In this document: piece after piece, positions 11,965 to 64,000 of the stretch | Layout: each line of letters begins with the position of its first letter | Numbering within the stretch: position 1 is the first letter of the stretch | DNA from: Podarcis liolepis | Taxonomy: Eukaryota | Strand: one strand, 5' to 3' | Assembly (NCBI GenBank): GCA_965112155.1 | Contig: OZ218107.1 | DNA: 64,000 bases | Position numbers and translations under genes: made by a program | The notes under the pieces: model-generated | Told to the model about the DNA's origin: nothing | Databases searched by the model: none | The model's input: the letters and a program-made list of their open reading frames with translations, nothing else

Positions 11965-12975
11965 TGCCATGCCAGCCGTGGCCTTTTTGGACAGAGACAG
12001 TTTAGCCACAGTGATCCAGCTCTGGTCATTTCCAGATGAGATCACTGCAACATGTTTGGTGTGTAGATTACACACCTGCGTTACCTGTGTATATACAATA
12101 TGTGTGAATATGTTGCAGACTTCTCAAACTTCATTTGGTTTGGAATATTATCATTATATATATTTATTAAATTCCTATCCTGCCCTGCCTCCCAAAGGAA
12201 CCCAAAGTGGAAAACAACAAAGTAGTAAAACAAAAGAATTAAAAATTACAGTGGTACCTCTGGTTACAAATTTAATTCGTTCCGGAAATCTGTTCTTAAA
12301 CTGAAACACTTCTTATCCTGAGGCGCGTTTTCGCTAATGGGGCCTCCCACTGTGCGCGCCTCCAGCACGTAATTTCCGTTCGCATCCTGGGGCAAAGTTC
12401 ACAACCAGGAGCAGCTACTTTCGGGTGGAGCTTGTAACCTGAAGCGTTCGTAAACAGAGGTACCACTGTAAATAAAAGTACATCATAAAGTCACCAACTG
12501 GCACCAGGCCTAGCAAACATATCATGACTGCCTGTTTCCAAGCATAATTGCAAGTGCTAATACTTGTTGTTTAATGATCTATGGGGCTTTAGGTCTGGTT
12601 ACCTCTAGAGCTGCCTTTTCTCACATCTACCAGCTGATGTGTTAAGATCTTTGTAAACAGCTTTCTCCAGGTGTCTCTGCTACCTGAGGTGCATCAGGGG
12701 ACATGGGAGTGACCTGTTCAACTGTAACAACTCTACTTTCCCCAGGAAACGTAGCCTGGCACTCTGTGTCTTTTAGTGCTTCATGAACCCTTCTTATTTT
12801 CCTTAGACGTTTAAAAATACTGTATTGTGTTTGATCAACCTCTTGTGCTGATCAACATGCTGCTGCTGTTACCATTGTTGTGTTTTTAGTGCATGCGCTT
12901 CCTTTTTATAGTCAGATTGTTTTCAAAGTGTTGTAACAGCTGCCCTGGGATTATTTTGTGCTGAAAGTGTAGGAT
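11965..12975 (+). mobile_element. Decayed L2 LINE 3' region, interrupted by later insertions
   Basis: FLDRDSLATVI..L..SR.D.CN-like peptide near 11985-12052; A-rich aaataaataa end near 12990. Confidence 0.5.
12249..12468. mobile_element. pogo/Tigger-type MITE (TIR CAGTGGTACCTC, TA TSD)
   Basis: TA|cagtggtacctc...gaggtaccactg|TA; a more diverged family member. Confidence 0.85.
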
Positions 12976-13920: not shown

Positions 13921-14190
13921 ACTAAAAAATAAATATGCCCTTCTGGGCAGAAAAGAAATGAGACAAGCCTTAAGGCAAGTGGGGATGGCATCCCCTTTGC
14001 CTCTTCCTCCCCAACACTTGATCAAAATACAAGACAAAGGGAAGCCAACCCTCTCCCCTCTTCTTTCCACCCCATCAAAATGTCCTCCAGAACGAGGAAA
14101 AGAAGGAAGGTAGAGCCATCCCTGCTTCACTTCCCACCCCATGCCATCCAGGGCAAGAAAAGGGGGGGGGGAGAGCACCTTCACCATGTA

Positions 14191-14421
14191 CAGTGGTACC
14201 TTGGATTACAAACACCTCAGGTTACAAACACTTTGGGTTACAGACTCCGCTAACTCGGAAGTAGTACCTCAGGTTAAGAACTTTACCTCAGGATGAGAGC
14301 AGAAATTGCGTGGCGGCAGTGGGAGGCCCCATTAGCTAAAGTGGTATCTCAGGTTAAGAACGGTTTCAGGTTAAGAACGGACTTCCGGAATGAATTAAGT
14401 TTGTAACCAGAGGTACCACTG
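14191..14421. mobile_element. pogo/Tigger-type MITE
   Basis: TIRs and TA TSD; opposite orientation to the 19040 copy. Confidence 0.88.
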
Positions 14422-17400
14422 TATTTCCCTCTCCACAAATAAAAATGATCTCCGGTGCTAGAAAAACAAGGAAAGTAAACCAAGAGGCCAGTAGGAAACC
14501 AACCATGCCACTTATCTGTCCCCCAGAGAAGGAGTTCACTGCCCTACCAAGTGGAGTGAAAAGGGAGGCCCTTTCTACTTCCAGAACTGCTTGGCATGCA
14601 GAACAATACCTATAGTTTCCCAGAGCGTTACTGGATGCCCCAAATCTCTTTCATTTTGCACAGAAAGCCAGTAAATTAATATATACTGTAGTTCTATTTT
14701 TGAAGCGTCCCCCTCCCCTAAAACATGACTCCCTTGGGAATTAAGTGAAATTAAGATTTATGCCTAAACCTGCACCCAGCACAGTGGCAGGATGTTCTGA
14801 ACTTTTGTCAAAATTTCTACTTCAGACATTAGGCTGTTTGATTACTGTAGACCACTTTTGGTGTTTAGGAGGCGTCTCTGATGACAATGAAAAGTCCCCT
14901 GCCCTCTTCTGCATCTGGTTGATCTGCAGACAGGAGCTAGAGCTATTTGCCTTGGTGCTGGTTGATTCAGCAACAGCCAGCCCAGGGAGTGGAGTGGATG
15001 AGCAGGGCTTTTGAGAGAAAGCTGGTCACATGTAGCCTCTTTACGCAGGCCTTCTCTTGCTCCTGACCATCTGTCTCTCCCTCTCTGTTCAGCTGATGGG
15101 GCAATTCCAGGGGTGTTAGATTCCCTATTCACTATGGTGCAGTTTCCACCGACATCCTGCTCTGGTCGCCCTGGGTGGGAATGGCAGTGGAGTGACCTTT
15201 CTAATATTACTACGAGAGAGAGGGACTGCCACTACTGCGGGGAATGGGGATTAAGGAGACACACCAAAGTCAGGAAAGGGGGATGGGTGGTGGCTGAAAT
15301 GAGGTGTACAACCTTCGGTGTTTGAGGAAAAATCTTCCCCAGCAGAGATAAGTGCCAGCTCAGGCGACCATACTTGCTGCTAGGATGATGAGGCACCTCC
15401 AGAGTCTGACCTGGACGTCAGAATCTTCAGGTTTACCTCATCTTTTTAGTGTTGCTGGTGAAGGAATTACCTCAGCTTTTTAGTGTTACAGTGAAGGAAT
15501 TCTTGTACTCCTTTCAACAAAACTTTGCAATATCTTATTCTTCTGCTTGGCACTATGAGAAGAGCTAGAGGAGAAGGGGGGCGGCGGCAAGAGATGAGCT
15601 ATAAAAATAGCTTTGTCCGATGGCTGCGGCTGTTCCACTCACTGCCTGTAATCCACCCTGTGGCATCCTGGCTCCCACGTGCACTGTGTGTTACATAATG
15701 GGAGACACTCGGGCATCACTTCAGCCTCAGAAAAGGGAAAGGGAAAGAGTGATGTGACATTTACACTGCTTGCGCTTCCCAATATGTTCCTCCAGCTGGG
15801 CTTTCCAAAGCATGTCAATGCTGAGCTGCTTTCAGAGGGGTTGATAGGCACCCAGAGAGCGTGAAAATAAAGCATTTCCATTTTGCACCAGAGGGCAGCA
15901 GCGGTTGACGTGGGTAGGGGCAGTAGAATGCCTTGCTCGAGAATGAATATAATTTGAGGGAGCAGGAAGAGAGTCAAAGAAAAGAAAAAGCTCTAAGGTG
16001 TCCTGTTAGGAGTATTTGCTGTGGAAAGATTAAGCCATTGGCAAGTGTCCAGGGACTAGGTTGCTTTGAATGAACAAGCCATTTTATAGTCTATAAAATA
16101 TAATACCAACTGTCACATGCTCAAAATAGGTTTCAGTGTTTGGAAAGGGAGGGCTTAGTTAGAATAATACATGGGGATTTGCTCGTGTGGGGAGGTTTGC
16201 GTGCAGCCCCAAAGGAGTTAGGGCTGTGTACATACCATACATTTAAAGCACACGACTTCCCCCTGAGATACCAGAGAACTGTGGTTTGTTGAGGGTGCTG
16301 TGAATTATAGCTCTGTAAGGAGTATAGTTCCTAGGATTTCGGAGTGAGTGTGTGTTTTAAATGTGTGGTGTAAAAAAAAACTTCTCAATAAATATCTTAA
16401 AAAATAAATAAATAAAAATAAATCTGTGGTGTAAAATTGGGCCTTTCCTGGCCAGTGACCTGCAGAGAGTCCTGTCTTACACACTCACTCAAACACGCAC
16501 ACACAAATACACACACTCTCACAGCCCAAGCCTTCTGTCTCCTCACATTTTGCCATATGGTTTTCAGCTGAGTGGAGTACCAAAAAAGAAAAAGAAAAAA
16601 TACTGCTTCTCAGCTTCACTTTTGGCTGCTATTGCCTCCCAATGTCAAGCAGCACAAACTTCTGTGAGGCTTCCTGCCAGGAATACTCAGCTGCAGCAAA
16701 AGGGGTTCCCTCTTCTGTGTTTCTCTCCTGGAAGTTTTTATTGAGCCACTCGTCCTAATTCATCCTTTGAAGAAGGATCTGGAACTGGTAAGTGCTGAGT
16801 AAAAAACAGGCCAATAAGGAAGTTCCAGAAGTCCATATGGGGTGGAGAGAAGGGGTTGAGTCCAGAAACTGTCCAACCATGGATCATGGAATATTTGGTA
16901 CCATACCAGAGTAGTATGGAAAGGGCAATTGGTGAGCACTCCAATATTCACAGTAGGGCAATTCATTTATTAGGAACAACCCAAATGACCTGCTAAACAC
17001 CGGCCTCTTCCCTTGCAGTTGCAACTAATGTTTTGTTGGCAAAAAGTAATCCAGTTTGGGTTGCACGTAAATGTCTACGGCCAGACTCTCTTGGGCCTGC
17101 AGTGATGAATCATTTTATTTTAAAATTTAATATGCATGTGTTTGAACAACATCTGTGGAATCAGACCCGCACGCATACTATACAAGGAGAAACAGCAGGG
17201 CTCTGTCGATGGCAATCAAAGGACCAAATGCTGAGTGTTTACTTTGTCCTGTCTGCCTTGTCACTCAACAGTGACTGTAGATTTTCTCCTTGTTCCATTG
17301 GAATAATATATATTGATTAGTCAACAGAAGTGAGTCCAGTGCGCATATAGTTCAAGTGTTTTTGTTCATTTCATTTAAATCCTCTGGTAGTGGTGGGTGG

Positions 17401-19039
17401 GAAGCGAAAACACAATTTGCAAGTAGGCCAGTCTTGGTTGCAGTCTTTTTATCCCAGAATTGATCATTTACATTAGTGGGGAGGTGAAGACAGCCTTTTC
17501 AGGACTGGGGCCACCTTTAGGCCACACATACCTCATGGGGCCCACTTCTTAATAGCTTAATATATATTTGTATGGTGGTTGTGTTGTTTTTGCAAGCCGT
17601 GTAGTTCAAGCTGTGACCCAGTAGTGGGTTCCAAACCTGCAGCAATTACCTAATGATGTTAGGTAATTGGGTTGGAGTTGCAGCCCTAGCTTCTGAAATA
17701 GGTAAGAGGAACCTATGGCCTTCCGGTTGTTGTTGGACTGCATCCCTGTCCATTGGCCATGCTGGCTGTGGATGATGGGGAGCTGCAGAGTCTGACAACA
17801 TCTGGAGGGTCGTAGCTTTCCCGCCTCTGCTCTAGAAGGCTTAAAGGATGAGGACTGGTGACTCTATAAGGATGTTTCAGCCCTTCTAAAGTAAATATTA
17901 TTTAGTGACATAGTTAAATTACCCTGGTGTAGTGCTTTACAGGAACCTTTGCTCTGCTCTCTTCTCATTGGTTATGACAAGGAGAGGCTCACATGACTGG
18001 AGAAACTTTCCTGAGCAAGTTGGATTATGAGCAGCTACTTAAGTTTTCTTATGTTCAAATATTGCTTTACAGAAACAGCTGCCTCTGAGAGGACTTTGAT
18101 GAGGCCCCAGAGAAGGGAAGTGGGGGGTGATGTAGGATGGTTTGTCCCTCCTGAATATTGTTGCCTCATTGGATTTATAAATAACATTCTCAATACCTTG
18201 GTTGCTAATTGTTTGTTAAGTATTTCCAGAAAGAATGAAGCAATTTCCAAGAACTATCATCATTGGCAAGGGAGATAGTTTGCTATGGAAGCCTTTTCTC
18301 CTTCCACATGCCCATTGTTCTCTACATTTCCAGTAATTTTTATTAATTGTCCAAGATCCTCTCTCTGTGCCTAAGAAGAAAAATAGGCATTTAGAATCTT
18401 AAGTAGTGCCATGGATATGATATGAGGTGCTCCTCATAGGTAGTTTCAAATGCTTGGGAACAGTGACCCCAATCAGCAACTGTGCATGGCAGAGAGGCTG
18501 CAGTTACTCTAATGTCTCCAGGAAAGAAGGGTAGTAAGATATGGCATTGGGGTGTCAAATGCAACAGTCAACCTGGCAATTCCCCATTAATTCAGCAGTG
18601 AGGTTGCCAGCCTCTTTTTCCAGCAAGGTTTTTCAGCCTTTATCAGATGCATTAAAGGCATAAATTCAACATTTCAGCCTTTTCCTAGTATGGAGATACA
18701 GTATTAGGAAATCTCCTCCTCCTCCTTTTTCCTCCAGGTTAATGTTTTATTATTAATTCAATAAATATGTTAAGAGCCAGTGGCTTAAAAACTTCAGCAC
18801 ATAACAAAGATACCAACAAGTCTCAATATCTGTAGACCCACCTGTCCTCCAGTTATCTGTTCCCTTCCCATGCTCCAGTAACAACACGATTGAAGTTATG
18901 CACAAGCCACCCTATGCTGTGCTATTCAAGAGAAACCAACATGAGAATAAAAGCAAGCTAAAATAGAGGGGTTGGAAGTAAAAAGAAGCTCTATTTTCGT
19001 TAGCTACTCCTCAAATGTTTAAGGAAAGACTAACATGTA

Positions 19040-19281
19040 CAGTGGTACCTCGGGTTAAGTACTTAATTCGTTCCAGAGGTCCGTTCTTAATCTGAAACTG
19101 TTCTTAATCTGAGGTACCACTTTAGCTAATGGGGCCTCCCACTGCTGCCGTGCCGCCGGAACACGATTTCTGTTCTCATCCTGAAGCAAAGTTCTTAACC
19201 CGTGGTACTATTTCTGGGTTAGCAGAGTCTGTAACCTGAAGCGTCTGTAAGCTGAAGTGTATGTAACTCGAGGTACCACTG
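19040..19281. mobile_element. pogo/Tigger-type MITE
   Basis: TA|cagtggtacctcggg...cgaggtaccactg|TA. Confidence 0.9.
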
Positions 19282-22026
19282 TATTACTAAAGCTTAGCAG
19301 ACTGCTGTTTTTGATAGGTCTCCCATTCTTTTACTGCTTGGCTCTCTCTGCCTCTGGGGTGGGGGGAGATCAGCAGGAAAGCTGAGCAGCTCTGCCACCA
19401 CAGAAGCATCCCTTACCTGGATTGCTTCTCCAGCAGTGGTGAGAGTAATGGGGCAGGTGGAGCACCAGTGGGGGCACCGCCTCTTGTGTTTCCGCTGCCG
19501 GAGGCGGCTCCTTCACCTTGCCTCATGGGTGGGCTGGCTCTGGTTTCAAATGTGATTTAAAGGTGTAGTGTGAATGCAGCGTGTTTCATACATGTTTTAC
19601 TTCCTAGGCGGCAGTCTGTGCTAGCTGTGGCTTTGTTGTGGTCCTTGGATGACCCAGTAAGATGGGTCTATCCAGATTTCCAAGAAGGCTGAGCTGCCTC
19701 TCTGGACAGGGATCAAGTAAGGGTAGAAACACAAAACAGATGACATGCAGGGAATGAGTTCTTTCAAGTACGTGCTGCGCACAATCCTGTTATGAGTTCT
19801 TCCAAACTACTTTTTCTTTTTTCTTTTGCATAATCTGTTACAGATAATCTCATGATGGCTCTTTCAGACTGCATCTGGTGAACTGTTGCTGCTTAATACT
19901 CTAGATTTTTTTTTCTTCCTTACCTGCCCCGCCTTGTTCACAAAACGTGCACCTCAGTTAGGATACTCCTGTAACATCAATAGTAGTTGTATAGAAGACA
20001 TTTTGGCAGGAGACAGCTTTCATCTTGGGTTGGGGGCAGGTGGAAAGGGTGAACTTGATGGCATTTATTCTCCTATAAAAGGAGCCCTGGCCAACTTTGG
20101 ACCTGGTCACATTTGCATCATTAGTTACAAACCTTCCTATTGCCTTTCCCCATCCACAAACCCACCCACCTAAATAGCAAGAATCTTGAAGTGCCTTTGA
20201 GTGACTGCTCCTCTTACTGTGCAATCTTAGGCGTGCTTACCTTAGAACCAAAGGCCCTCTTGGAGCCAGAAAGATGGGCATTGAATTGCAACCTTAATGT
20301 AAAACAGGTGGATTTCTTATTCCCTTGATGAATTGTATGTTCTTTGGCATCCTGGCTAGCTAATGTTTCAAACTGGAAAAGAGAAAACAGCATCTCTTCT
20401 ATGTGGCAAAAGTAGTTTCGCTTGGGAATCCACGGGCTGTTTTTAATTTGAACACATTGTCTTGCTTCTATTACATGAAACACTTCTGCTGAGGAATTGC
20501 CTTTATCCATTATGTGTGACCCTCTTAAAAAGCTTTTGAATGGTCTTCTTTTTGGGGGGGAGGGGGCAGGAGAGCAGGTGGGGGAAGAGGCAGAAGAAGT
20601 AAATCTGCTGCTAAATCTTCACCTCTGTAAGCTAACATGACCTTTCAGTTGGCCAAGTGTGCAGAATAGAGGCCACAGGACTCAGCCAATATTCGGGCAA
20701 AATGACACCAGTCGAATCTGATCCATTGGGCAGGTATGTATTCTAGAGATTCAAACCGTGGCCACGAAATATCTCTCTGTTGAGAAGACGACAGGTGAAG
20801 GGTTAACTTGCAGCAGCAGCCACACACAGCAAAGGGCTCTCCTCTCTCCGCCTGCCAGCTCCTGGAGACTAGCAGAGAGTTAAGGAGCTGGGAGTCTGAC
20901 GTCAAGAGGGCCAGAATAGAAGACTCTATTTATAGGGCTGTTCCAAAGGGAATGGGAGACGCACAGACAGAGAGATTGTTCACTGGCTTGTGCTTGCAGG
21001 GTTGTTTTCTCTGTTCTTAACAGTGCAGGCAGCTGCCCCACTAGCTGGCACAGCTGCCTTGTTGGGAGGGAAATGGGCTCTCTCCACTGGCCACATTTGG
21101 TCTGTATGTCCTCCCCATTCCTTTCCTACACAACCTCATAGAACGGTTACACATCCTCCTAATATAATTCATTTAGTGTCCAAATGCAGTACTGGTACTT
21201 TCAGTATATGATAAATCTTTTTCAGTGAATAATTCCTAGCATTTTATCCTGTGACCTACAAGTCTTTAACCCTTTCCCCAAATGCATGGGGACTGGCAGT
21301 GGTGAAAGAAAGGTACTCTGTTTGGAATCCGAGGTGTTCTTTACATGTTCTGAGGCTGTGATCTGGTACTGAAAACAAATACTTGCAGGTAAATCCATCC
21401 CGGTCTTGATTCATGTCAATATTTGCTCATATTCCCAGGAAAGAATTGCAAATTCTTTTGGGAACTTAAATTACCTGATTCAATGTTGTTGCCATGTTAT
21501 CTGTTTCCTTGTCTCCATGGGAAAGGATTGCTAAAAAAGGAAAGAAAAAATAGGGGCGGAGGAGCCCTCAGGCATAACATCTGTGCAACCAGTCCTCTCT
21601 CCAGGTTATAAGATTTATGCAAAAGCAAAACACAGAGTCCTGTGCCCTGTGATACCACTGTTGCCATTTACTTCCAAGCTTTCAGTCCTATCGTGGAGGA
21701 TGGCACAACTGCAAAATGCCCTAGCTTGAACACAATGCTCCTTTGATATTTCCCCCCACAAAGTTCCAATCCTAAAGATGTATTTACTTCTCTAATCTAG
21801 GAATAATCACTGTGCTACTTTCAGTCTCTCCTCTGCAGCATTTTGAGTATGCATAATCATTGCGGAGTTCTGTTGTTGCATTCCCTTTTGTGCTTTTTGG
21901 CAATGGAACAAAGAAGTCTTTCTTCTCTCCTAGTTATCTGACGTATGAAGCAGAAATGTGTGTTGTGATCTTCATTTCCACCTAGAGATTGTAGTATCTT
22001 TTAACTGGAACATAGCATGTCTAGCC

Positions 22027-22060: not shown

Positions 22061-22728
22061 AGTTTATAATCTCTGCAGCAATCTGTAATACCAGCATCTG
22101 GGGCTGGATTTGGGGCACATGCAGCAGCATTTGTGATGTCAATCTAATTTCTGAATGAGCGTAAAATGGTTGCAAAACCATGAATCCTATAGGCGCCCTT
22201 GTCAATCAGTCATGGTTGATGGCAGCTCCCTTTACTTCCTGCAGTACAGTCATTACACATTACAAAACTCAAACTGACACCAAAACCAGCATCCCCCTAA
22301 TTTTCAGCTTAGCCAGGGTCCAATGTCATCACAATGTGTGAATACCCACCTCATTAGATCACATCACTGGATGGTGGGGACAGGAAATGCACACTGTAAT
22401 GAAGCCCATCCATGTTGGCCAATGGGCAAGGGTGATGGGTGTTGCAGTGCAACTTTTGAAGGAACACAGGTTCCACACCTCTTCCTCAAGGACTAACAAA
22501 TTTATAAAGACATTATGCCAAACAATTATTTGTTAGCTTTCCTGCAAATCCTCCTAAAAGAATGAGGAGTACACAATAGACCGGAGACAAAGCTCAGAGG
22601 TAATCAGAAAAATATGTAAGAGATCCATTCTTCTAGTTGCTCCCTAAAATTCACAAGGAAAGCTTCTCTTTGCTAAAATAAAAAATTCCTTCCAGTAGCA
22701 CCTTAAAGACCAACTAAGTTAGTTCTTG

Positions 22729-22766
22729 GTATGAGCTTTCGTGTGCATGCACACTTCTTCAGATAC
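22729..22766 (-). ncRNA. Minimal type-I hammerhead ribozyme motif, inverted copy
   Basis: Exact reverse complement of 22785-22822. Confidence 0.7.
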
Positions 22767-22784
22767 ACTTCTTCAGATACATGT

Positions 22785-22822
22785 GTATCTGAAGAAGTGT
22801 GCATGCACACGAAAGCTCATAC
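22785..22822 (+). ncRNA. Minimal type-I hammerhead ribozyme motif (PLE type)
   Basis: GTAT-CTGAAGA-A-GTGTG(CATG)CACAC-GAAA-GC-TC-ATAC: stem I GTAT/ATAC, CUGANGA and GAAA cores, 5-bp stem II, palindromic AGCU in place of stem III. Confidence 0.7.
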
Positions 22823-23952
22823 CAAGAACTAACTTAGTTGGTCTTTAAGGTGCTACTGGAAGGAATTTTTTATTTTGACTATGGCAGACCAACACGGCTA
22901 CCTATCTCTTTGCTAAGTACACCTGTTGTGTCAAAATCAGGATCTATTTGGGGGCTATTTTGTAGCCTTTCTTGATTCCTTTCTACAAGATTTTATGCAG
23001 TAGAGCCCATCATTTATTTAAGATACAAAACATTTTATCAAGGCAGTGGATTGTATGCCTCCACTTACATACTGATCTGAACACTGCTGCTGCATGCATT
23101 TGGCATTGTGATGTGATGGCACCAGCAAGCTGAGACAGATTCCTGTGGGTTGTGCATCCTCTGCCTCCTGCATAAGAGAAATTTGACTTTCCTTGGAACT
23201 CTGGAGACACATCTTGTAGATGGCAGTCAGAGGCCACATGCACACCACATATTTGTAGTGATATTATGCCACTTTAAACAGTCATGGCTTCCCGCAAACA
23301 AAGAATCCTGAGAAGTGCAGTTTGTTAAGGGTGCAAAGAGTCATCAGAAGAGCCACATTACCCCCACAGAGCTACCATTCCCTGAGAAGGGAAGGACTGA
23401 TTGTGCTGTAGGGAATTGTGATGCTGAAAGACTACATGGCAGCAGTCTACACGCATCGTTCCAATCATTAACCAAAAGAATTGGAACAACCCAGCAGCTT
23501 CTATCCCATTTGTGGTTGTGTTTGCTGAGCACAAGTTAAACGTAATAGTATTGCTTGCTGGGATATAAAGCACTTCTCCTACTCATGATTTATGGATTGA
23601 AGTTTTAAATATTAACACAACATAAATAGGCCAAATAGCTTTTATCTTCACTGACTCAAAGGCTCTTCTTTAAATGAACATAAAATCCTTCCTTTTGTAG
23701 ATAAAGATGCCCATCTGTATTGCTCGTGAATCAAGTTTCATTTACTTTGAAAAACTTAAATCACGTTTGCCGTGCCGGGAGGACAGTAACAAGCAATGAT
23801 ACTTTTTCTGGAGTCAGATACAGAAACCTGAAGGTTGAATTGAACTTTGCTTATTATCTCTTGTTTTGTCTCTCCGGCCGCACACTTCCCATTCTGTCAT
23901 TTGTTGATCTCGGGGGGGGGGGGGGGCGCAAAGTTTGGCCTTTTAAAATTAA

Positions 23953-32341: not shown

Positions 32342-33367
32342 TCAGTTGGCCAAAACCACTGGCTGGAACGACTGGCTGGGATACTGCATGGCGTTCAGAT
32401 TGTAGCTGAGTCCTTCCACGAAGGGTGTCTTCTCCAGAAAGAGGCTGTTGGTGCTGCCCCCAAAGACCTGAGCCATGTCAAAATTGCCGCTGCCGCCACT
32501 GGCACTGAATTGGGATGCAGGAGGCATGCCGCCGGCCTGGTTTTCGGTGGCTACACCATCAAAGAAGAGGCTGCTAGCTCCTGGCGATCCACCATTGTAA
32601 ACAAACTCCTTGGCATTGGGGGAGAGCTGAGATTGAGGGGCCGAACTGCCCCCGATGAAGTTCAGAGAATGCATAGACAGGGAGAGACCTTTGTGCTTCA
32701 GCAGGCCATTGGTGGGCGACCTGGCTAGGCGCTGCTGCTGCTGTGGTGGAACCCCTGTGCCACTGGTGGCTGCTCCAGCTCCTCCGCCTTTCTTCATCTT
32801 GGTTGAGCCAAACTTAGTGGCAGCAAAAGTGGCAGTGGTGAAGGTAATGGGCTGGGCAGAGCGAGGGATGAACGTGGGGCTGGGTGACTGGCCAAACGAT
32901 GGGGATGGAGAATTGGACAAGGAGTTGTCCTGGCTGCCAATGGGGACGAACACCTGAGCGTCAGGATTGAAGCTGCTCTTGATCTCCTTGTCCAACTCGG
33001 CTGCACTGCAGCCCTCACTGTCATCTAGATATAGAACCTTGACAGACCCTTTCTCACCAATCTGGTAGGAGACCTCAAATGGGTCAATCCAGACACTCAG
33101 TTCTTCAGGAACATTGGCCCGCACATCCTCTACAGCCAGCCCACTCCGCTTGGCTGCCATCTCGACTACGGGGTCCACCGTCTCCCCAATGTGAACACAG
33201 CGGTAGCCAGAACCCTTCAGGGGCTTCTCTGGGTACCAATGGCCTTCATATTTTTTCTTCAGCAGCCGCTCTAGCTCTTCACCAAACAAGTCGGCCCGCC
33301 TCCGTGGAAGCTTGTTGTACAGATATGAGATGATGAAGTTCAGAGCAACTTTGATCTCCAGATGCAT
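32342..33367 (-). CDS. TOB2: Protein Tob2 (transducer of ERBB2, 2; BTG/Tob family), single coding exon, 341 aa
   Basis: ATG at 33367 gives [54 protein letters not shown] (BTG/Tob domain). Two PAM2 motifs ([23 protein letters not shown]) and the C-terminus [13 protein letters not shown]. The ORF-track extension to 33466 crosses a splice acceptor. Confidence 0.97.
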
Positions 33368-43014: not shown

Positions 43015-43131
43015 AAGTAGCTATGTTAGCTGGTTCCTGCAAAAACATCGAAGAACCCTGTGGCACATTAAAGGTAAACACATTTATTATGGCATGAGCT
43101 TTCGTGAAAGAGAATCCGTTTCATTAGATGT
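43015..43131 (-). mobile_element. Decayed Penelope-like pLTR end with a mutated hammerhead core
   Basis: gtagctatgttag...gcacattaaaggtaaac...gcatgagctttcgtg...tcattagatg parallels the 22.7 kb element. Core reads CTAATGA instead of CTGANGA. Confidence 0.55.
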
Positions 43132-49642: not shown

Positions 49643-49921
49643 TGGCACTGGTGGCTACATGACTGGATAGATTTGCAATAGTTTGCATCTTGAGTCTTTC
49701 CATTCTGGTCCCATCCTCCCATCCAATTGCTCCCCAAAGGTAAAATATCTTATTGGTCCCCAGCACTAGCTCAGTAACAGCCTCTAGAGCCATTACCATT
49801 TTTTGTAAAAAGAAGAAAAAGCTTCACCCGCATTAAAAAAATAGGAAAGGCAAGCAATATTACGAAACCATCTATAAAAATCAAAATTCCAAAAGTATGC
49901 TTTTGGAGCTAGTACAGAGTA

Positions 49922-50160
49922 CAGTGGTACCTCGGGTTAAGTACTTAATTCATTCCAGAGGTCCGTTCTTAACCTGAAACTGTTAACCTGAAGCACCACT
50001 TTAGCTAATGGGGCCTCCTGCTGCCACCGCACTGCTGAAGCACGATTTCTGTTCTCATCCTGAAGCAAAGTTCTTAACCTGAAGCACTATTTCTGGGTTA
50101 GCGGAATCTGTAACCTGAAGAGTATGTAACCTGAAGTGTATGTAACCTGAGGTACCACTG
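49922..50160. mobile_element. pogo/Tigger-type MITE
   Basis: TIRs and TA TSD; very similar to the 19040 copy. Confidence 0.9.
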
Positions 50161-50954
50161 TATACTGAAACCTGTTCCAGTTATAGCATTTGATAAACAA
50201 TGTTATTCATGGCTATGCTGTAGTGGTGTGTTAATATGCTTTGCCTAACAGGCACAGTGGACTATAGAATTGAATAAGGTCACTTAAGAGTGACCTGTTT
50301 TCAGAAACCCTGGAAGCAAAGGCTGAGGTCCAGGGTTGCGAGTATGTAGAAAGCTTGCTGCTTCTCTTGCCAAACCTGTTCTGTGGAGAGTAGCTTTCTA
50401 CCATGTAGAGGCACCTTGGTGCTTAGAAGTACAAGTTTATTACCACACCTTTTACCACACCAACTATTTCCCTTCAGAGACGACAACTTGTGCACAATGT
50501 CTGGCTGTGATTTGGAATCTGGTAATCACAGCTCATAACAATGCCATTTATGGGATGGAAGAATAATCTGGGCAGGGCAACACCCATCTTTTTATAGTCT
50601 GCTTCTCATGGGTCTTTTGTCTGTAGCAGCAGTAGGATGTCATTTTCCTGCTGCTGAACTAGTTCTATGTGGATAATTGCACTAGAACAAAACTGGGTAA
50701 ATCTCAAATGGCAACTAGACTTTTTCAACAGTAGGCAAGAATGGCGGTTTTACAGCATAAGCATTTCACACTGATGCAAGACACACGTTAAGACAATATG
50801 AACTGCTGTTCTTTAAAGCCTTTCAGTGCTCTGGACTTCAAACTTGCCACTGTTGGAGGATATCATCTTATACATATCTAACAACAGGAGCCAAGAAAGA
50901 ACAATATGGAGAGATTCAGAGACAGGACCCTCCATTAGAAGACTACTATAAAAC

Positions 50955-51631: not shown

Positions 51632-51833
51632 CTTCAGGTTACAGACTCCACTAACCCAGAAATATTACCTCAGGTTAAGAACTTTGCTTCAGGATGAGAA
51701 CAGAAATCGTGCTCCGGCGGCACACCGGCAGCAGGAGGCCTCATTAGCTAAAGTGGTGTTTCAGGTTAAGAACAATTTCATGTTAAGAACAGACCTCCAG
51801 AACGAATTAAGTTCTTAACCCAAGGTACCACTG
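51632..51833. mobile_element. pogo/Tigger-type MITE, one TIR missing (PHF5A intron 3)
   Basis: Body matches the 57631 copy and ends aggtaccactg. Confidence 0.8.
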
Positions 51834-54811
51834 CACACTATTTTAGGATAGTGCTGCAATTCAATTTTATCTACCAGGGGCGTATGAATTCTACATCCAG
51901 AATAAGTTGCACAAAGCTCCTTTATTTAATCTGGCCTTGGTGTTTGGGGCTTTGCAGAATTTGGAGTGTTTTTGCAAAGACAGAGGGATTAAAAGATCCA
52001 AAGTCATACTCGGCAGACCCATGAAAATCAAGATTTAAGTTAGTGATGGCTGACTTACTGTAAGTCCATTGATTTAATTGGTCTACTCCAAGTATGACAT
52101 GGCTACCCAAAAAAAGCAGGCATGGACAGTGAGAAATATTAAGAGCTGTACAGAACAAGAATATTAAGCACTTTGCAAGCCCAACTCAAAAACTTTGCTT
52201 CAGCTTTCTGCAGATACACCAGCATATTTTCAGATTTATCTAAACCACCATAAGAGCTAGAAAATGAAAAAGCAATTGAAAGCCAATATGTGAGCTCCTC
52301 AAGAAGTCAAATAGCATGCTGCTGTTCAACTTTACAGAATTTGATGGCTTGAGGTAGTTCCTGAAGAAAGAACTGTTCTGAAATGCACTGAGCTGTAATG
52401 AATCTCAGTTGGCACTTTTGAGAAGCTTCTCCATTTTGCATTCTTTCTCATTTCTGTGGCACCTTACAGACTGCTACTGGCATGCAGTTTTCGAAACTCC
52501 CATTGTGACAGGGAATTTCCTTAGCGCGAGCAGTTTCTGAGCTCTGGGTGCAGTACTGCGCCTAAGATTTCAGACTAAAAATTGCAGAGTGGAAGGAAAG
52601 GAGGACCCTTTTCTGCCTCCCCACTTCCAGCTACTCTCTGAAGACTGGAGAAGAGACCGTCTGAAAAATATTAGGAGGGTTGGCAGGGGAAGGAGTAGAG
52701 CACGTGAAAAATGAACATAATATCTTAGCTGCAGTTCATTCATTTTCAGCTTTGTATGCTTGTTATAAAAAAAGCGCACCTAGACATTCTGTTGCTGCAC
52801 CCATAACATAGGTTCAAGGTGCCATTTGGCTCCTATCTTCCATATCTCAGTTTCTAACACTACTGGCATGGCAGCTAAAGGGTTAGGCAGGTAGAAGATC
52901 ATTTGCTGTTGAATATGCCAGGGTAGTTTGGATTCAGGGTAGGCAAGGACTGCTTATTGTTCCAAGAGCTGCTGTGAAGGGATGAAGGAACAGAGCGTGG
53001 TACAGTTACAGCTGGAGGAACCCACCTTACAGATAATTTTCAGTTACATTTAAGCTGATAGATCTGTGAACTTTTTGCAGGGTACTGGATTCTCTTCACC
53101 AACCTACCCGCTCAGCAGATGCAATATTTTCCTCAGTTTACACTTTCACACAGGAAATCAATAAATACCTCCCCAGTCTGAAGTGACACATTTTGTGCGT
53201 GCCCTATGCCACGTTTTCTGGAGGGCCACTTTCATTACTGTGCGATCAGTTGCAAACAGTTGCAGACAGGGCGCCCACACAACTCTTAAAGGTGAAGGAG
53301 CCCTGGCCTCTTTTTCACTTGGCTACCCTATTGTATTCACTGACAAACTTCCCACAAGTATAGAAATAGCTTTAAAACCAGTTCCAACTGCACTTCATGG
53401 CCTCGCCATTTTAGCATCTGTCTGATTTGGAGAGGATCCTCTTCATAGAATTCCATCTTAACCTGGGTGCAGCAGTACTTTATGCTAAAAGAACCCATTG
53501 TTACTGACCCATTTTCTTCATATTGTCTAGCAGCCCTAGTGCCTTCTTTTCTGTCTACAGCTGAGACGAGTTTATGCACACATTCAACATGCACTCAACT
53601 GTAGAATCCAATGTCGACTTACTCATAAAGCATCTATCACACCATAGATGGCCCTAATGTCACAGCATCTCAAACAGTACTTTTAAATGGAGGTAGTCAA
53701 TACACATTCAACTGCAAATCATCAAGTAATGTATATGCAAATTCAAAAAGCCTTTCCTTTTTAAAAAACCCCTCCTCCCAAGCTCTTCCTACACAGTTAG
53801 TATCAGACAGAATGAAGCTAATTGTCAGCTACTCCATTTTCAAGAGCCATGCTCTCTACTTCTGCTGATTTTTCAACTCAAATGTGAGATGGCTGGGTAG
53901 GAACAAGGTCACTTCTATTGTCCCTGCGTAGCAACCAGCAAAACAGGTGCATTTCACTTTATAGATAATTGCATTTCTGTGGTACAATTGGAGCAGCAAG
54001 GTGAAAAAAGAGAGCACAGGAGCTCCTGCACCTTTAAAAGATGTACCTTCCCTCTTCTCTACAACTATTAAAGATGCATGAGCCCTGACCTATTTTTCAC
54101 AAGGCCACTTTAGAGTCAAGGCATTTTTCCCTGTACTCATTCATTGTTAAAACAGTCTGAATCTGCTCTTACTGTAAGGGTTTCTGGTACAGAAGAACAC
54201 CAGCTCTACTGTGGCAACATTGTAATACCCACCCTCAGACAAAAATATAAGGTGTCCCAAATTCATAGAAGGGACCCTGAGGGTCATCTAGTCTAACCCC
54301 CTGCAACGGAGGAATCTCAACAAGTGACATTACAAAGGAATTTGTAGGACTGGCGACAAAATCTGATACCATTGCTACTTACAAACCACCCCACCCCAAG
54401 ACTGCTAACCCAGATTGCTGTTTAGAATATTACTACACTACAACGGCTAGTAGTTGATACTATAATTTTATATTAAAGGTTCAACTGCCAATGCTGATTT
54501 TTATTTTTTAAACCCCTGTCCTTGATCTCTTGTAATCTAAGGCATGAATGAAATCTGTCTACTGGTTTGCAGCCATAAGTTATTTTAGAAGAGTTTGAAA
54601 TTATAAATTATGTTTGTTTTAGGGCCCTTTTGAAAGAGACAAGTATGAATAGGCCTTTATTGAAGGTAGTGGACATGAGAGCATATAGATATTAGAATAT
54701 AAGCATCCCAGGCTTCAGATGTTTACCAACACATGGGCCAACGATAATATTTAAGAACAAACAATTGCAACTTAGAGAGCGGAAAAATGCAAACCCCTGT
54801 AACAATCTTAC

Positions 54812-57553: not shown

Positions 57554-57630
57554 CTGCAATAAAAATGGAGAAAAATGAATAACATTCATTTGGAAATTCT
57601 GAAAGTTCCACATTATTTCTAGAATCTGTA

Positions 57631-57855
57631 CAGTGGTACCTCGGGTTATAGACGCTTCAGGTTACAGACTCCGCTAACCCAGAAATAGTACCTCGGGTTA
57701 AGAACTTTGCTTCAGGATGAGAACAGAAATTGTGTTCCAGCAGCACGGCGGCAGCAGGAGGCCCCATTAGCTAAAGTGGTCTTCAGGTTAAGAACAGTTT
57801 CAAGTTAAGAACGGACCTCCAGAATGAATTAAGTTCTTAACCTGAGGTACCACTG
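57631..57855. mobile_element. pogo/Tigger-type MITE (PHF5A intron 1)
   Basis: TIRs and TA TSD. Confidence 0.9.
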
Positions 57856-59499
57856 TACTACTCTTCAAGATTAACCTTATATTCAGGTGGGGATGGGTGA
57901 ACTATGAGAGAATAATAGGTTTTAAAGGCAATTAACTAAAATGTTTAATAAAAACTTTTGGTATTCTGTGAGAAGATCCTATCCAGACTGATATTCGGGG
58001 CTGGTCCTATCCATGCTTAGTCAAAGGTAAACTGAACGAACTTTAATCAGTGAGTAGCTAGATACAGTGCAGTGGCAGAAAGGCCACATGGCACAAAGTA
58101 CGAGAGTATATTTTAAGAAACAGCCTTTATATTTTCCCTTCAGTTTCAAACATTGGGACCTGTTTCCAGGCACGTGTTTTTAGGAATGCAACCGTAGGCT
58201 TTCACTGTTAATACGTTATTGGCAGGACTAAACTTAAAGCAAACATAATCTTTCCTCACTCTGCCTAATGTGTTTTGCCAAGATTAGAGCTTGTCATTTT
58301 CAAAACAGCAGTAAGAATGTAATACTCATAGGGAATGAAGGCAAAGAATGCGCTATTTTGATGAAAATACAAATAGCAAAGCCTTATGTCTTATGTACGT
58401 CACAGGCCGAGAGTGATGCAGCATCATGTAAACTTACAACTTCCAGAGGTAAATGAGAGGGCTGGAGGCCCAAAACCTGTAGTTGTATGGTAGGAAAATC
58501 TTGTAGCAAGTATGATTAAAAAAAATTAAAAATCCTTGCTGCTAAGAAGCAGTTAATAAAATATCAGTTAAAAGCAGGAGGGGACAGAAATGTAGGACAT
58601 TAGATATGACTATGTGACTCATGTAAAACTGTTGTAACTGATACAACATTCATTCCACTTTAAGCAAGTACTGTATTTGGTTGCAAGAAGATCTCCTCTT
58701 TTGCAGCCCAGCTAGCTGAAATCCTTTTAATTAGATGCTAGTGATTGATCAGAACTTAAGTGTGCAAATCATGTTCCAATATTATACAGCAGGACCTAAA
58801 TGCTTCCATCTACAAGCCACAATGATGCAGCAGATATACAGTACTTGTTTTTCCATCTAGGTCTGCTTATGACAGCTGCAGGGTTGGCATACGAACACTG
58901 CACTGTGTTAAGGAATATCTGACGGGGGCGGGAGAGAGAGGAACAGTGATGGGCTCCAGAGATGCATATGCATGCAATATAAACCATCCTAGGGGCCAGT
59001 TGGCAACTTGAGGATAGGAGAGCCATTAAGGAGCAACTACTTTATGCAGAACTTATGCTCTGAATTCAGCTATCACGGCTAACGGTTAAACGGACTAGAC
59101 CTCGGCTGATTTAAAGCTCCTTCTAAAGCCACCTAAGCCTGCGACTATCACTGCATCTGAGGGCACGGAATCCCCCGAGTTCACTGCCGCTTGCGAGATG
59201 ATGAGAATGAGGTTTCGCCAGTCCATTTCTGAATCTCCCGCCGATCCGATTTCATTGGGCGGCTCCGACTTCAGCCACAACGAGTGAGGCCCAAGCGCGC
59301 CGGTTCGCAATTCCGTTTCAGACGTGAGGCCTCGCCGCGTTTTGCCGTTTGGACCAGGGCAGAAGTCAGTCGAGCCTCGGAGACCCGGACGGTGGGGCCT
59401 TCCCGGCCGCTGCTCTCCGCCCGCCTCCCGCCGCGCGCGCAGCCCAGGCACCCCGAGGCTCCCGGTCCGAGAGAAAAGGGAAAGGAAGGGGGGCCTCAC

Positions 59500-60472: not shown

Positions 60473-61647
60473 GTGAGTCTGGTACCCGTAGACTCGGTTA
60501 TGGGCAGAGCAAGCGGTAGAAGCTGAGTGTAGCTGGCGGAGTCGGCAGTGGGGGTCGAGGCCTGCGCGCCCCTCGCTGCTCTTCGGGCTCGGCATTCCGC
60601 TTCCTCGCTGTAGGTCAATGTGTCCCCCATGCCGGTCCCGCCTGTGACTCCCTGCAAGCAAGGAGGGATGTTTGCTTGGCAGTACCATAGAAAGGCCTGG
60701 CATGCCAACCCATGAACACTAGCGAAGGCTTCGTGCTGTCTCCGGGGTGGTGCGCTGTCTGGTGGGGCCCCGCTCACGAACTCAAGGTGAGGGCAAGGTT
60801 ACTGGGGTTCTGCGCCGCCGCTGGCTTCCATCCACACTCGGCATTTATAAGCGACGCATTGTACCGTTATGCATGCAGTCGTATTGATAGATGGATTTTT
60901 ATAACCTGCACACGGTAGGTGGCATAGGAATTCACTTTTCAGCAATAGGCCTCTTCCCTGTGGCTTGTTTCACACAAATAGTTCCCCAAATTTTACGCTA
61001 CAAATTATGCACAGAACTTCTTTTGGTTAACCTCTCTAGCCCTACAATCCTGTATACACTCTTATTTGGGTGAGCCACTCAATAGGGTTTCCTTCTGAGT
61101 AAAAATGTAGAAATTTTTCTGTAAAACCTATGCACCAAATAGTCAAGCTGTAAATGTTAGATGTATTGTTACTTTTAGAAACAGGTCAGGCTTAGGCATG
61201 AGATGGACATGCATAACTTTGTATGCTGCCTTTCCGTAGTTCAAACCATGCTCAGGACAGTTTGCAACATAAAAAATACATAATTACACACATAACAAAA
61301 GTAGACACAAACAATAAATACCAAAAGTTCACAAATTAAACAATTTCCACATAAATAATAATATTTAAAATAAAGATACCAAAAAAAAAAATGATTACAG
61401 CAGCAACCCCACTCAACAAAACCCCCTAAAAAGTACCCCAGTCCAAGAGTCTGTTCAGCATCCTTAACTTTTGTAGCTGGTATCAATCAGGATCCTGCCC
61501 GCCCAGGCCAGGTGGGTAAAAGCCTGCAGGGCAGGGAGCAGGTCTTCCAGGACTCTCAGCCAAGATGGACACCAACACTGCAGACAGGATGAACTTGAAG
61601 CTAAGATTGTTGGTTTATGAAAGAGATACCATGTGCATAAGGGAATA

Positions 61648-61873
61648 CAGTGGTACCTTGGGTTAAGTACTTAATTCGTTCTGGAGGTCCGTTCTTAACC
61701 TGAAACTGTTCTTAACCTGAAACACCACTTTAGCTAATGTGGCCTCCTGCTGCTGCCGCATCGCCGGAACACGATTTCTGTTCTCATCCTGAAGCAAAGT
61801 TCTTAACCTGAGGTACTATTTCTGGGTTAGTGGAGTATGTAACCTGAAGCGTATGTAACCCAAGGTACCACTT
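61648..61873. mobile_element. pogo/Tigger-type MITE (ACO2 intron 1)
   Basis: TA|cagtggtaccttggg...aaggtaccactt|TA. Confidence 0.88.
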
Positions 61874-64000
61874 TAATACTTACATTGGGGCCTCAATGGT
61901 GCTTGTTAATGGGTTCTGAAGACTCAAGAGATACTGTTGCTGATACCAGCCTGTAGATACCAGCTTTCATTTCCCCCAAGTGGGACAAATTGATTTCTCG
62001 GCACCCCTACTTCATATAGCCCTCTTCATTCTCTCTACTTGTTGAAAAGTCTGCTTGCTTGACCATAATAAAGAACGTTGCCCAATCCACATATTCAACA
62101 TTCATTTTCCCTGAAACAGTATCTTCCAATATCTTCCATTGATATAAAGTCAGGTCATATTAGGGACACTGAAGATCCAGTATGCAGCATACTGAAAACA
62201 GTTATTTTCTTTACCAAAACTAGCTCCCTGCACAGTGATGTTTTGTTTCCCCCCACTCCATTTATCCCTTAGTCACTTACATTGAGTAAGAGTGTATGGA
62301 GGGGACACACTCTGTGATTATTTCTACTCGAGGGCTTGCATGCTACTTCTGAACAGTCAGCCCTGAGGGAGGAATTTGTGCTGGATCTTCTAGCTGTTTG
62401 GTCCATCAGCTGCCAATCAAGTATAAACCCTGCTGCTGAAGGTGGTAGATCATCAATAAGCACACTCTTATACTGTTAATGGATACAGGTGGTGACCATT
62501 TCACATGGGAGTTCAATTCCGAGAATCCATGCACATCGGCGGAGCATGTATAAGCTCAAAAGAACCCATGTCTCAGTGATCGTGCATCAATTGGACATTT
62601 CTAAAATGGTTGCCGCCTGTACAGAGTTCCCTTTAAAAGTACTGGGAAGCTGCTAGAAGCTTAGCTGTATTGTGACTATACTACACAGTCAGAACTATAC
62701 CGTATATAGTAGCAGTGTGAGGGAAAGCAGTTCTGTTCTGGACAGTTCCAGTTTTATTTAAGAAGCAAGATACTGTGGAGGTGGCAAGCAGAGAATAGAA
62801 TTGGAAAAGTAACAGCTGTGTTAGAGTTTTGAGAGGTATATGCTAACTTCAGGTAGAAGGAGAGATTGCACACCAATAAGCTGACAATGGAATGAGGCTT
62901 TCAAGACCAACTCTGAAAGACTGCTGTGGGGACTGAAAATTCAGTGAAGTTTGGGATTGCATCTTAAGATTTGAAACAGTATTTAGAGTAAGGGTGGCTA
63001 ACCTTTGGCCTTCTAGATGCTGATAGACCACAATTCCACTTATCCCTGACTTATTGGACATGTTGACTGGAGCTGATATGAGTTGGAGTTCAACAATATC
63101 TGGAGGTTAGCCACCCCTATTTTAGGAGGCTTTATGTACAACTAGGGGAAAAGTTTGAAGAGGAAAAGTAGAACACATACTTGTGGGGGTGTAATGTTGA
63201 CATGTTTACAAAAATGCCATTGTGGTTGGCCAAGGACCTATGACTGAACTGAGACTTAATCCTGTGACCAGTGGTAATGGTGCTGCTTAAACACCTCTTT
63301 CCCTTCATAATTACCGTAAGCTATCTACCTGGAATGTCTCATGTGCAAATTCTGTTAACATGAATGTCACACTAATTTCAGTGGGATTGCGCAAGAGGCA
63401 TTCCTCATGTATTGTACTTTTAGTCATGATGGCTTTGAGGTAACATGTGAACCGCTCACTCAAAATGTCAATAGGAGCAGAAAAATGAGTGAAATCACAA
63501 ACAATGTTGCCTAGATTTGTATTTTGGGTTATGAAGTGAACAGTTTTCCAATTGTAGTTCCATTTAACTAAAGCAATAGGCAGAAAATCTAAAGCAGAGT
63601 CAGTGTTTTTAATATTCCGCACAAAGTGATGAATCTCAGAGAAGTCAAATTGAGGATTGGAGTCTTGAGTCACTTCCTTTCTCAGTAGAATTTTGTACTA
63701 AGATTTTTCAGGACAGATTTATGCAAGAAATTGTGAAGGTGGCTGACCATTACTTGATCAGATTTTAAACTGAAAGCTGTTTTAAGATCTGCTGACTTCT
63801 TCAGTCATACAAGGACATAAAGACAGCTTTGGCTACAATCCTAAGTACCTTTACTAGGGAGTACCATTTGACTAAATAGGATTTACTCCTGAATAAGCAT
63901 TATTAAGATTGCAGTATTGTGTTTGTCAGTCTCATATTAAAAATATCTCTTAAAATTTGAAAGCTGGAAGCTTGCTCAGGGATAGTGACAGCAACTGACA

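Follow-up and report, generated by a model that had tools for sequence, protein, structure and literature searches.

The window, that is, the whole 64,000-nt stretch of Podarcis liolepis DNA analyzed here (contig OZ218107.1), carries at 22665-22916 a short palindromic insertion, the features of which are collected in Table 1. Repeat analysis of the window confirmed what a sequence-only reading had described, namely two inverted arms of 94 nt each without mismatches, 14 nt apart, enclosed by an intact 12-nt direct repeat, TCTCTTTGCTAA, representing the TSD. The 14-nt interval had been regarded as a spacer. Its length is correct, but it is not unique sequence, being composed of a duplicated arm 5' end plus one base: a direct repeat is observed (22751-22764 and 22765-22778), and 22769-22781 re-copies the 5' end of the arm. 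The bases shared by each TSD copy with the adjoining tail or arm indicate microhomology at the insertion ends. A single-exon frame of 341 aa with BTG and PAM2 (TOB-type), which we take to be TOB2, is also located in the window, and an ATTAAA on the minus strand lies 6.1 kb from the insertion. No neighbouring bZIP gene was found by a motif scan of the window. No RNA dataset was listed as containing the locus, a result that does not bear on its expression.

Table 1. Features of the insertion and of the TOB-type gene (window positions). Family coordinates place 0 at the first C of the CUGAAGA core.
Feature	Position	Strand	Remarks
TSD, left copy	22665..22676	.	last 2 bases also match arm; single copy in empty allele
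Inverted tail-less pLTR end	22675..22768	-	family positions about -6 to +87
Minimal hammerhead motif, minus-strand copy	22729..22766	-	sequence, repeat analysis, folding
"Spacer": 13-nt second copy of arm 5' end (family -5 to +7) plus one other base	22769..22782	-	direct repeat
Direct pLTR end	22783..22876	+	family -6 to +87; its start coincides with the family hot spot of 5' junctions, a predicted transcription start
Minimal hammerhead motif, plus copy	22785..22822	+	predicted cut after 22818
One-sided PLE tail, ~30 nt	22877..22907	+	last 3 bases common to TSD; no such tail on left side
TSD, right copy	22905..22916	.	single copy in empty allele; first 3 bases also match family tail
ATTAAA	29032..29037	-	candidate poly(A) signal of TOB-type gene
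TOB-type frame (BTG + PAM2)	32342..33367	-	single exon, 341 aa

The contigs of four runs were compared with the window: X1, X4 (the same species label, another sample), and X3 and X5 (other species). In three of the four, X3, X4 and X5, one contig passes directly from 22664 to 22905, the 240 bp being absent and the 12-mer single. In X1, unique flanking contigs end at 22676 and resume at 22905, corresponding to both TSD copies; X1 is possibly the source sample and so provides no independent support. With 240 bp inserted, 12 bp duplicated and an empty allele present elsewhere, the insertion is young and unfixed. The empty allele in X4, X3 and X5 supports the earlier suggestion of a very recent insertion and shows it to be polymorphic.

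Several other elements of the window were recorded. At 23176, 6 extra bases are present in all four runs (X1 included), implying either a heterozygous deletion or an assembly error. A decayed inverted repeat of ~170 bp at 635-806, 74% self-complementary, AT-rich and MITE-like, is unrelated to the PLE family. Interspersed repeats of ~230 bp, 73-93% alike and in both orientations, are located at 12244-12470, 14189-14437, 19036-19283, 49916-50162, 51632-51839, 57629-57859 and 61632-61875. At 43057-43106, the minus strand carries a PLE pLTR end that is old and diverged (73% over 52 nt) and has a decayed hammerhead core.

The identity of the family was established from its longer copies. Searches of the 1.57-Gb genome with exact patterns gave 11,672 copies of a 34-nt motif and 13,700 of a 29-nt 3' motif, with 0 for the reversed controls. 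Long copies extend upstream into a frame with a terminal GIY-YIG domain. In the 5'-truncated frame of locus L109 (508 aa), RVT_1 (E 7.7e-8) and GIY-YIG (E 1.6e-5) both exceed the curated cut-offs, and the pLTR end that follows is identical to the window arm at 94/96 positions. Arm and tail together match L022 and L018 at 125/125 and L077 at 121/122 positions; copies joined to an RT + GIY-YIG frame are 94-100% identical to the arm. The sequence-only reading had proposed a Penelope-like origin on the condition, set beforehand, that the arm be linked to such a frame, and this origin is supported by the linkage found. Furthermore, a Cys-rich linker (Cys/His cluster) precedes the endonuclease in the family translations, as in Neptune; in the available text of PMC8557442 this RT-EN linker is a Neptune feature common to Nematis. 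The second feature given there for endonuclease-bearing PLEs also appears in the translations, and the insertion has the inverted truncated pLTR, the TSD and the tail on one side that characterize an endonuclease-bearing PLE. Judged by its sequence, the family is a Penelope-like element and probably belongs to the Neptune clade. The palindrome is an ordinary stub of this Neptune-like Penelope element, and the locus is not special. A full-length element was not found, one deep ORF pattern giving 2 matches.

Palindromic copies are abundant. Back-to-back cores within 13 nt occur at a minimum of 945 loci genome-wide, forward and reverse matches denoting the same loci because the pattern is self-complementary; this provides the genome-wide count of palindromes that had been suggested as a check. 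A second junction class, in which one arm is cut inside stem II, comprises 786 further head-to-head loci, and the 14-nt duplication of the window is common to 65 loci. Among the first 100 arms listed on contig C1, a dense region (71 loci), head-to-head pairs were counted at 29 loci, which is a minimum because an exact match was needed in both arms, and 26 of these 29 have exactly one tail. The samples used here and below are the first listed places, mostly on C1, and are non-random. Other arrangements are also present in the family: at L018 (G000:C1:1925014-1925189) a tailed arm is followed directly by a short tail-less arm in the same direction, a direct double insertion, while L028 and L102 are insertions inside older pLTRs of the same family, a hint of self-targeting.

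Both copies of the hammerhead motif were then considered. The plus motif consists of a 4-bp stem I, the CUGAAGA core, an extra A, a palindromic stem II and GAAA, with a palindromic AGCU in place of stem III. The conserved core, a helix I of 4-5 bp, helix II and a palindromic helix III remnant are the sequence features of a minimal type-I hammerhead, the presence of which on each strand had been claimed and is confirmed; the cut predicted after C22818 agrees with canonical hammerhead numbering. Rfam hammerhead models expect stem III. The search with such models, also suggested previously, returned no Rfam hammerhead family at E<=10; of its 34 matches, all under gathering scores, 29 were to miRNA-hairpin models. 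An RNA starting at -4 is predicted to fold as a minimal hammerhead (probability ~0.75 for stem I, 0.96 for stem II), and co-folding of two motif copies is predicted to favour an intermolecular stem II duplex. For a transcript across the insertion, a long hairpin of -175 kcal/mol is predicted instead. Forcing the ribozyme fold costs 65.9 kcal/mol on the plus strand and 47.5 kcal/mol on the minus strand relative to this hairpin, with a stem I/II pairing probability of 0.000, and in an RNA ending just past the motif the ribozyme fold still lies 59.6 kcal/mol over the hairpin. On both strands, the antisense arm is transcribed first. From this modelling, the hairpin is predicted to sequester the hammerhead motif and to keep it inert. 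The identical 38-nt motif is present in 51/66 sampled arms reaching -4, so that in a young family its intactness is no sign of selection. Separately, a natural pLTR hairpin that would mask the core in read-through RNA (stem I probability <0.03) was rejected as a designed switch, because 85/300 shuffles of the upstream 26 nt did equally well.

The points at which the arms begin were analyzed along the family coordinate. Among the first 100 C1 arms, 41 break at -8..-1, 20 at -290..-9 and 27 at 0..+48, the remaining 12 running past the reference copy. Break density is therefore 5.1 per nt at -8..-1, against 0.07 upstream and 0.54 downstream. It should be noted that a pile of 12 arms at -291 is the end of the reference copy and no real boundary. 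A TATATA begins at -37, and TCAGT, Inr-like by the Inr consensus, overlaps the hot spot. Genome-wide, 2,360 breaks are located at -4, 2,495 at -6 and 517 at -7. Of the 100 matches listed for the -4 break, 61 have G immediately before it, 21 have A and 18 have C; G precedes the break in 14/100 listed matches at -6 and 19/100 at -7 (Fisher p 5e-12 and 2e-9, respectively). At 30 inspected -4 loci, none represented a substitution in intact upstream sequence and none ran on into native upstream sequence, and the partner arm fails to explain 12 of 18 inspected G's. In the -6 class, to which the window insertion belongs, T and not G precedes the break in 74 of the 100 listed, which counts against a capped start; this class is also confounded by GTGT microhomology with stem II. 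In L1 insertions, an extra G marks capped 5' ends, according to the available text of PMC11702581. Read as the L1 cap mark is, the extra G at -4 breaks, together with the hot spot at the TATA/Inr-like site, suggests a capped RNA that would start at the first base of stem I, the start being taken from DNA alone. In the literature covered, which excludes most subscription journals, no published report was found of a junction hot spot in PLEs, of a cap G there or of their twin priming; Figure S2 of PMC11167929, which maps genomic PAc ends, may bear on the hot spot.

Whether one cDNA or two gave rise to the arms is reflected in the position of the tail. Of 70 pairs examined among 100 listed places from the 786-locus class, 62 had the tail on the short arm and none on the arm with the longer 5' end, 6 showed the reverse arrangement, 1 had both arms tailed and 1 neither (p 8e-13); 3 of the 62 "tail-less" assignments arise from early-broken alignments, without which the ratio is 59 to 6. 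For 45 of these 70 pairs, the best repeat flanking the insertion measured 12-14 nt. A dead stub might also be formed if one tailed cDNA reached the RNA 5' end, folded back and copied itself, or if self-priming occurred on an antisense template, as proposed for PLE palindromes in the available text of PMC3846280. Such snap-back after a full-length cDNA is documented for R2 in the corresponding text of PMC11371274, the tailed arm is longer at both ends in 6/68 asymmetric pairs, which fit a single-cDNA snap-back, and in the window the left arm falls entirely inside the span of the right arm. However, no copy can be longer than its template, so that under snap-back the arm extending furthest 5' should also be the tailed one, whereas in 62/68 asymmetric pairs each arm has sequence that its partner lacks, indicating that neither arm served as template for the other. 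The tail test is silent on the window insertion, because both its arms lie at about -6; there, both arms include -5/-6 with one base between them, leaving no loop for self-priming. An antisense template would, moreover, leave the break and the extra G at a sense TATA/Inr-like site unexplained. Formation by self-copying is thus considered unlikely. Strand-biased deletion at palindrome centres after insertion is a possible source of the asymmetry. In vitro, a Penelope protein cuts both strands and extends them, RT beginning at two sites that delimit the tail (PMC11167929, available text), that protein being of the Poseidon clade and not of the family here. The genomic pattern speaks for two cDNAs, with priming at both target nicks, and against self-priming.

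The locus is probably best described as a recent, polymorphic 240-bp insertion of two 5'-truncated PLE ends, head to head, likely from two short cDNAs, with a hammerhead motif that is predicted to be hairpin-locked and inert. Perfect palindromes can come from library fold-back, and in the runs compared the filled allele is spanned by no contig, so an assembly artefact was considered; fold-back of reads would leave neither a 12-bp TSD nor a tail on one side only, nor would the empty allele then differ by exactly 240 bp, and unique X1 contigs halt at both TSD copies, making this scarcely credible. The palindrome might itself be mobile, a MITE- or retrozyme-like family copied whole, as could be thought from the 65 loci with the same 14-nt duplication and from lengths clustering near 200 bp. 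Against this, a family copied whole would share its centre and ends, but 27 different junctions were present in 30 inspected of the 65 loci and palindrome centres differ from locus to locus; in 18 paired loci the duplicated arm was tailed in 9 and tail-less in 9, the other 12 being without a detected partner. A mobile palindromic unit is accordingly most improbable and largely refuted; the available part of a bioRxiv retrozyme paper contains nothing on inversion. The sequence-only reading had proposed a switch, in which read-through RNA would toggle between a self-cleaving hammerhead and a 94-bp hairpin or give rise to siRNA; such a switch might have a function at the TOB-type gene. It is true that both motifs are intact, that this gene is oriented towards the insertion from ~6-9 kb away, and that any transcript across the insertion would form a long hairpin. 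The switch is nevertheless unsupported, because in a transcript of either strand the antisense arm precedes the ribozyme, whose fold lies 47.5-65.9 kcal/mol over the hairpin, with stem probabilities of 0.000. Minimal hammerheads, in the available texts, do not cleave singly and cleave little as dimers (PMC4209133), and one PLE hammerhead required protein (PMC11167929); in addition, another sample of the species label lacks the insertion, and intact motifs are usual in the family. A regulatory switch is therefore very unlikely.

For the preferred reading of two short cDNAs, the following course can be envisaged. The pLTR promoter would give rise to a capped RNA starting 4-7 nt before the hammerhead core. 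The element protein would nick both target strands ~12 nt apart, and reverse transcription would be primed by each nick, in one case at the tail end (about +125) and in the other at the tail-less site (about +87). The cDNAs would then extend towards the RNA 5' end, about 95-130 nt away, after which their 3' ends may be joined by microhomology or end joining, in the window insertion after a 14-nt slip. Palindromes would be built anew at each insertion and, without promoter or reading frame, would constitute dead by-products. In its general form, to which we incline slightly, PLEs would insert by double TPRT: each staggered nick would prime its own cDNA at one tail-bounding start site, synthesis would run off a capped pLTR transcript at its 5' end, exactly at hammerhead stem I, giving a strong-stop-like product, and the 3' ends would be joined. 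If true, a single scheme would account for the inverted pLTRs, for the tail on one side only and for a fixed TSD, with no need of an antisense template, and thousands of genomic stubs would represent a readable record of insertion.

The locus itself matters little, being unfixed and one of about a thousand alike. Opposite-strand dual minimal hammerheads and inverted truncated pLTRs are already known from the available texts of PMC4209133, PMC8557442 and PMC3846280; what is new, within the literature searched, is the family-level tail asymmetry and the cap-like G. In the text available, PMC8557442 describes the formation of tandem and inverted PLE structures as still undefined. The asymmetry (62 v 6) and the cap-like G speak against self-priming and provide two sharp predictions testable in the published PLE in vitro system. 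The many young, polymorphic hairpins might also be used as presence/absence markers and, taken together, are a putative dsRNA source.

Comparison with known systems is made here as far as the available text of each paper goes. Head-to-head pLTR ends, a one-sided tail and a short TSD are common to the insertion unit of endonuclease-bearing PLEs (PMC8557442; Pen2a_Av, PMC3846280), in which a tail of 30-40 bp lies on one side with an inverted 5'-truncated pLTR; TATA- and Inr-like motifs in the pLTR are likewise shared. In contrast to that unit, both arms here are cut to ~95 nt and include no reading frame or promoter. In the available text of these two papers, where self-priming on an antisense template is proposed, neither a junction hot spot nor an extra G nor an asymmetry of the tails is mentioned. 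With metazoan PLE minimal hammerheads (PMC4209133), the motif shares a 4-bp helix I, the extra base between 9 and 10.1, G10.1-C11.1 and a palindromic 15.2-16.2. That paper reports reptile motifs, as well as dual motifs 100-700 bp apart on opposite strands, whereas the two motifs here are only 18 nt apart and fully complementary, and are for that reason predicted to be sequestered. Regarding TPRT by PAc (Poseidon of Anolis, PMC11167929), the two RT starts bounding the tail and the cutting and extension of both strands resemble the scheme above, and the ribozyme is dispensable for insertion, to which the motif here, predicted to be inert, may be likened. The family here differs from PAc in its Cys-rich, Neptune-like RT-EN linker, and head-to-head insertions are not derived from two-strand extension in PMC11167929. 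Twin priming of L1 (PMC11702581) is similar in the priming of both target ends, the discrete TSD, microhomology at the inner junction and the cap-derived G. L1 twin priming, however, inverts non-overlapping parts of one RNA, while here both cDNAs would copy the same ~95 nt, resulting in a palindrome, and, unlike in L1 twin priming, the head-to-head form is a main product (29 pairs in 71 loci).
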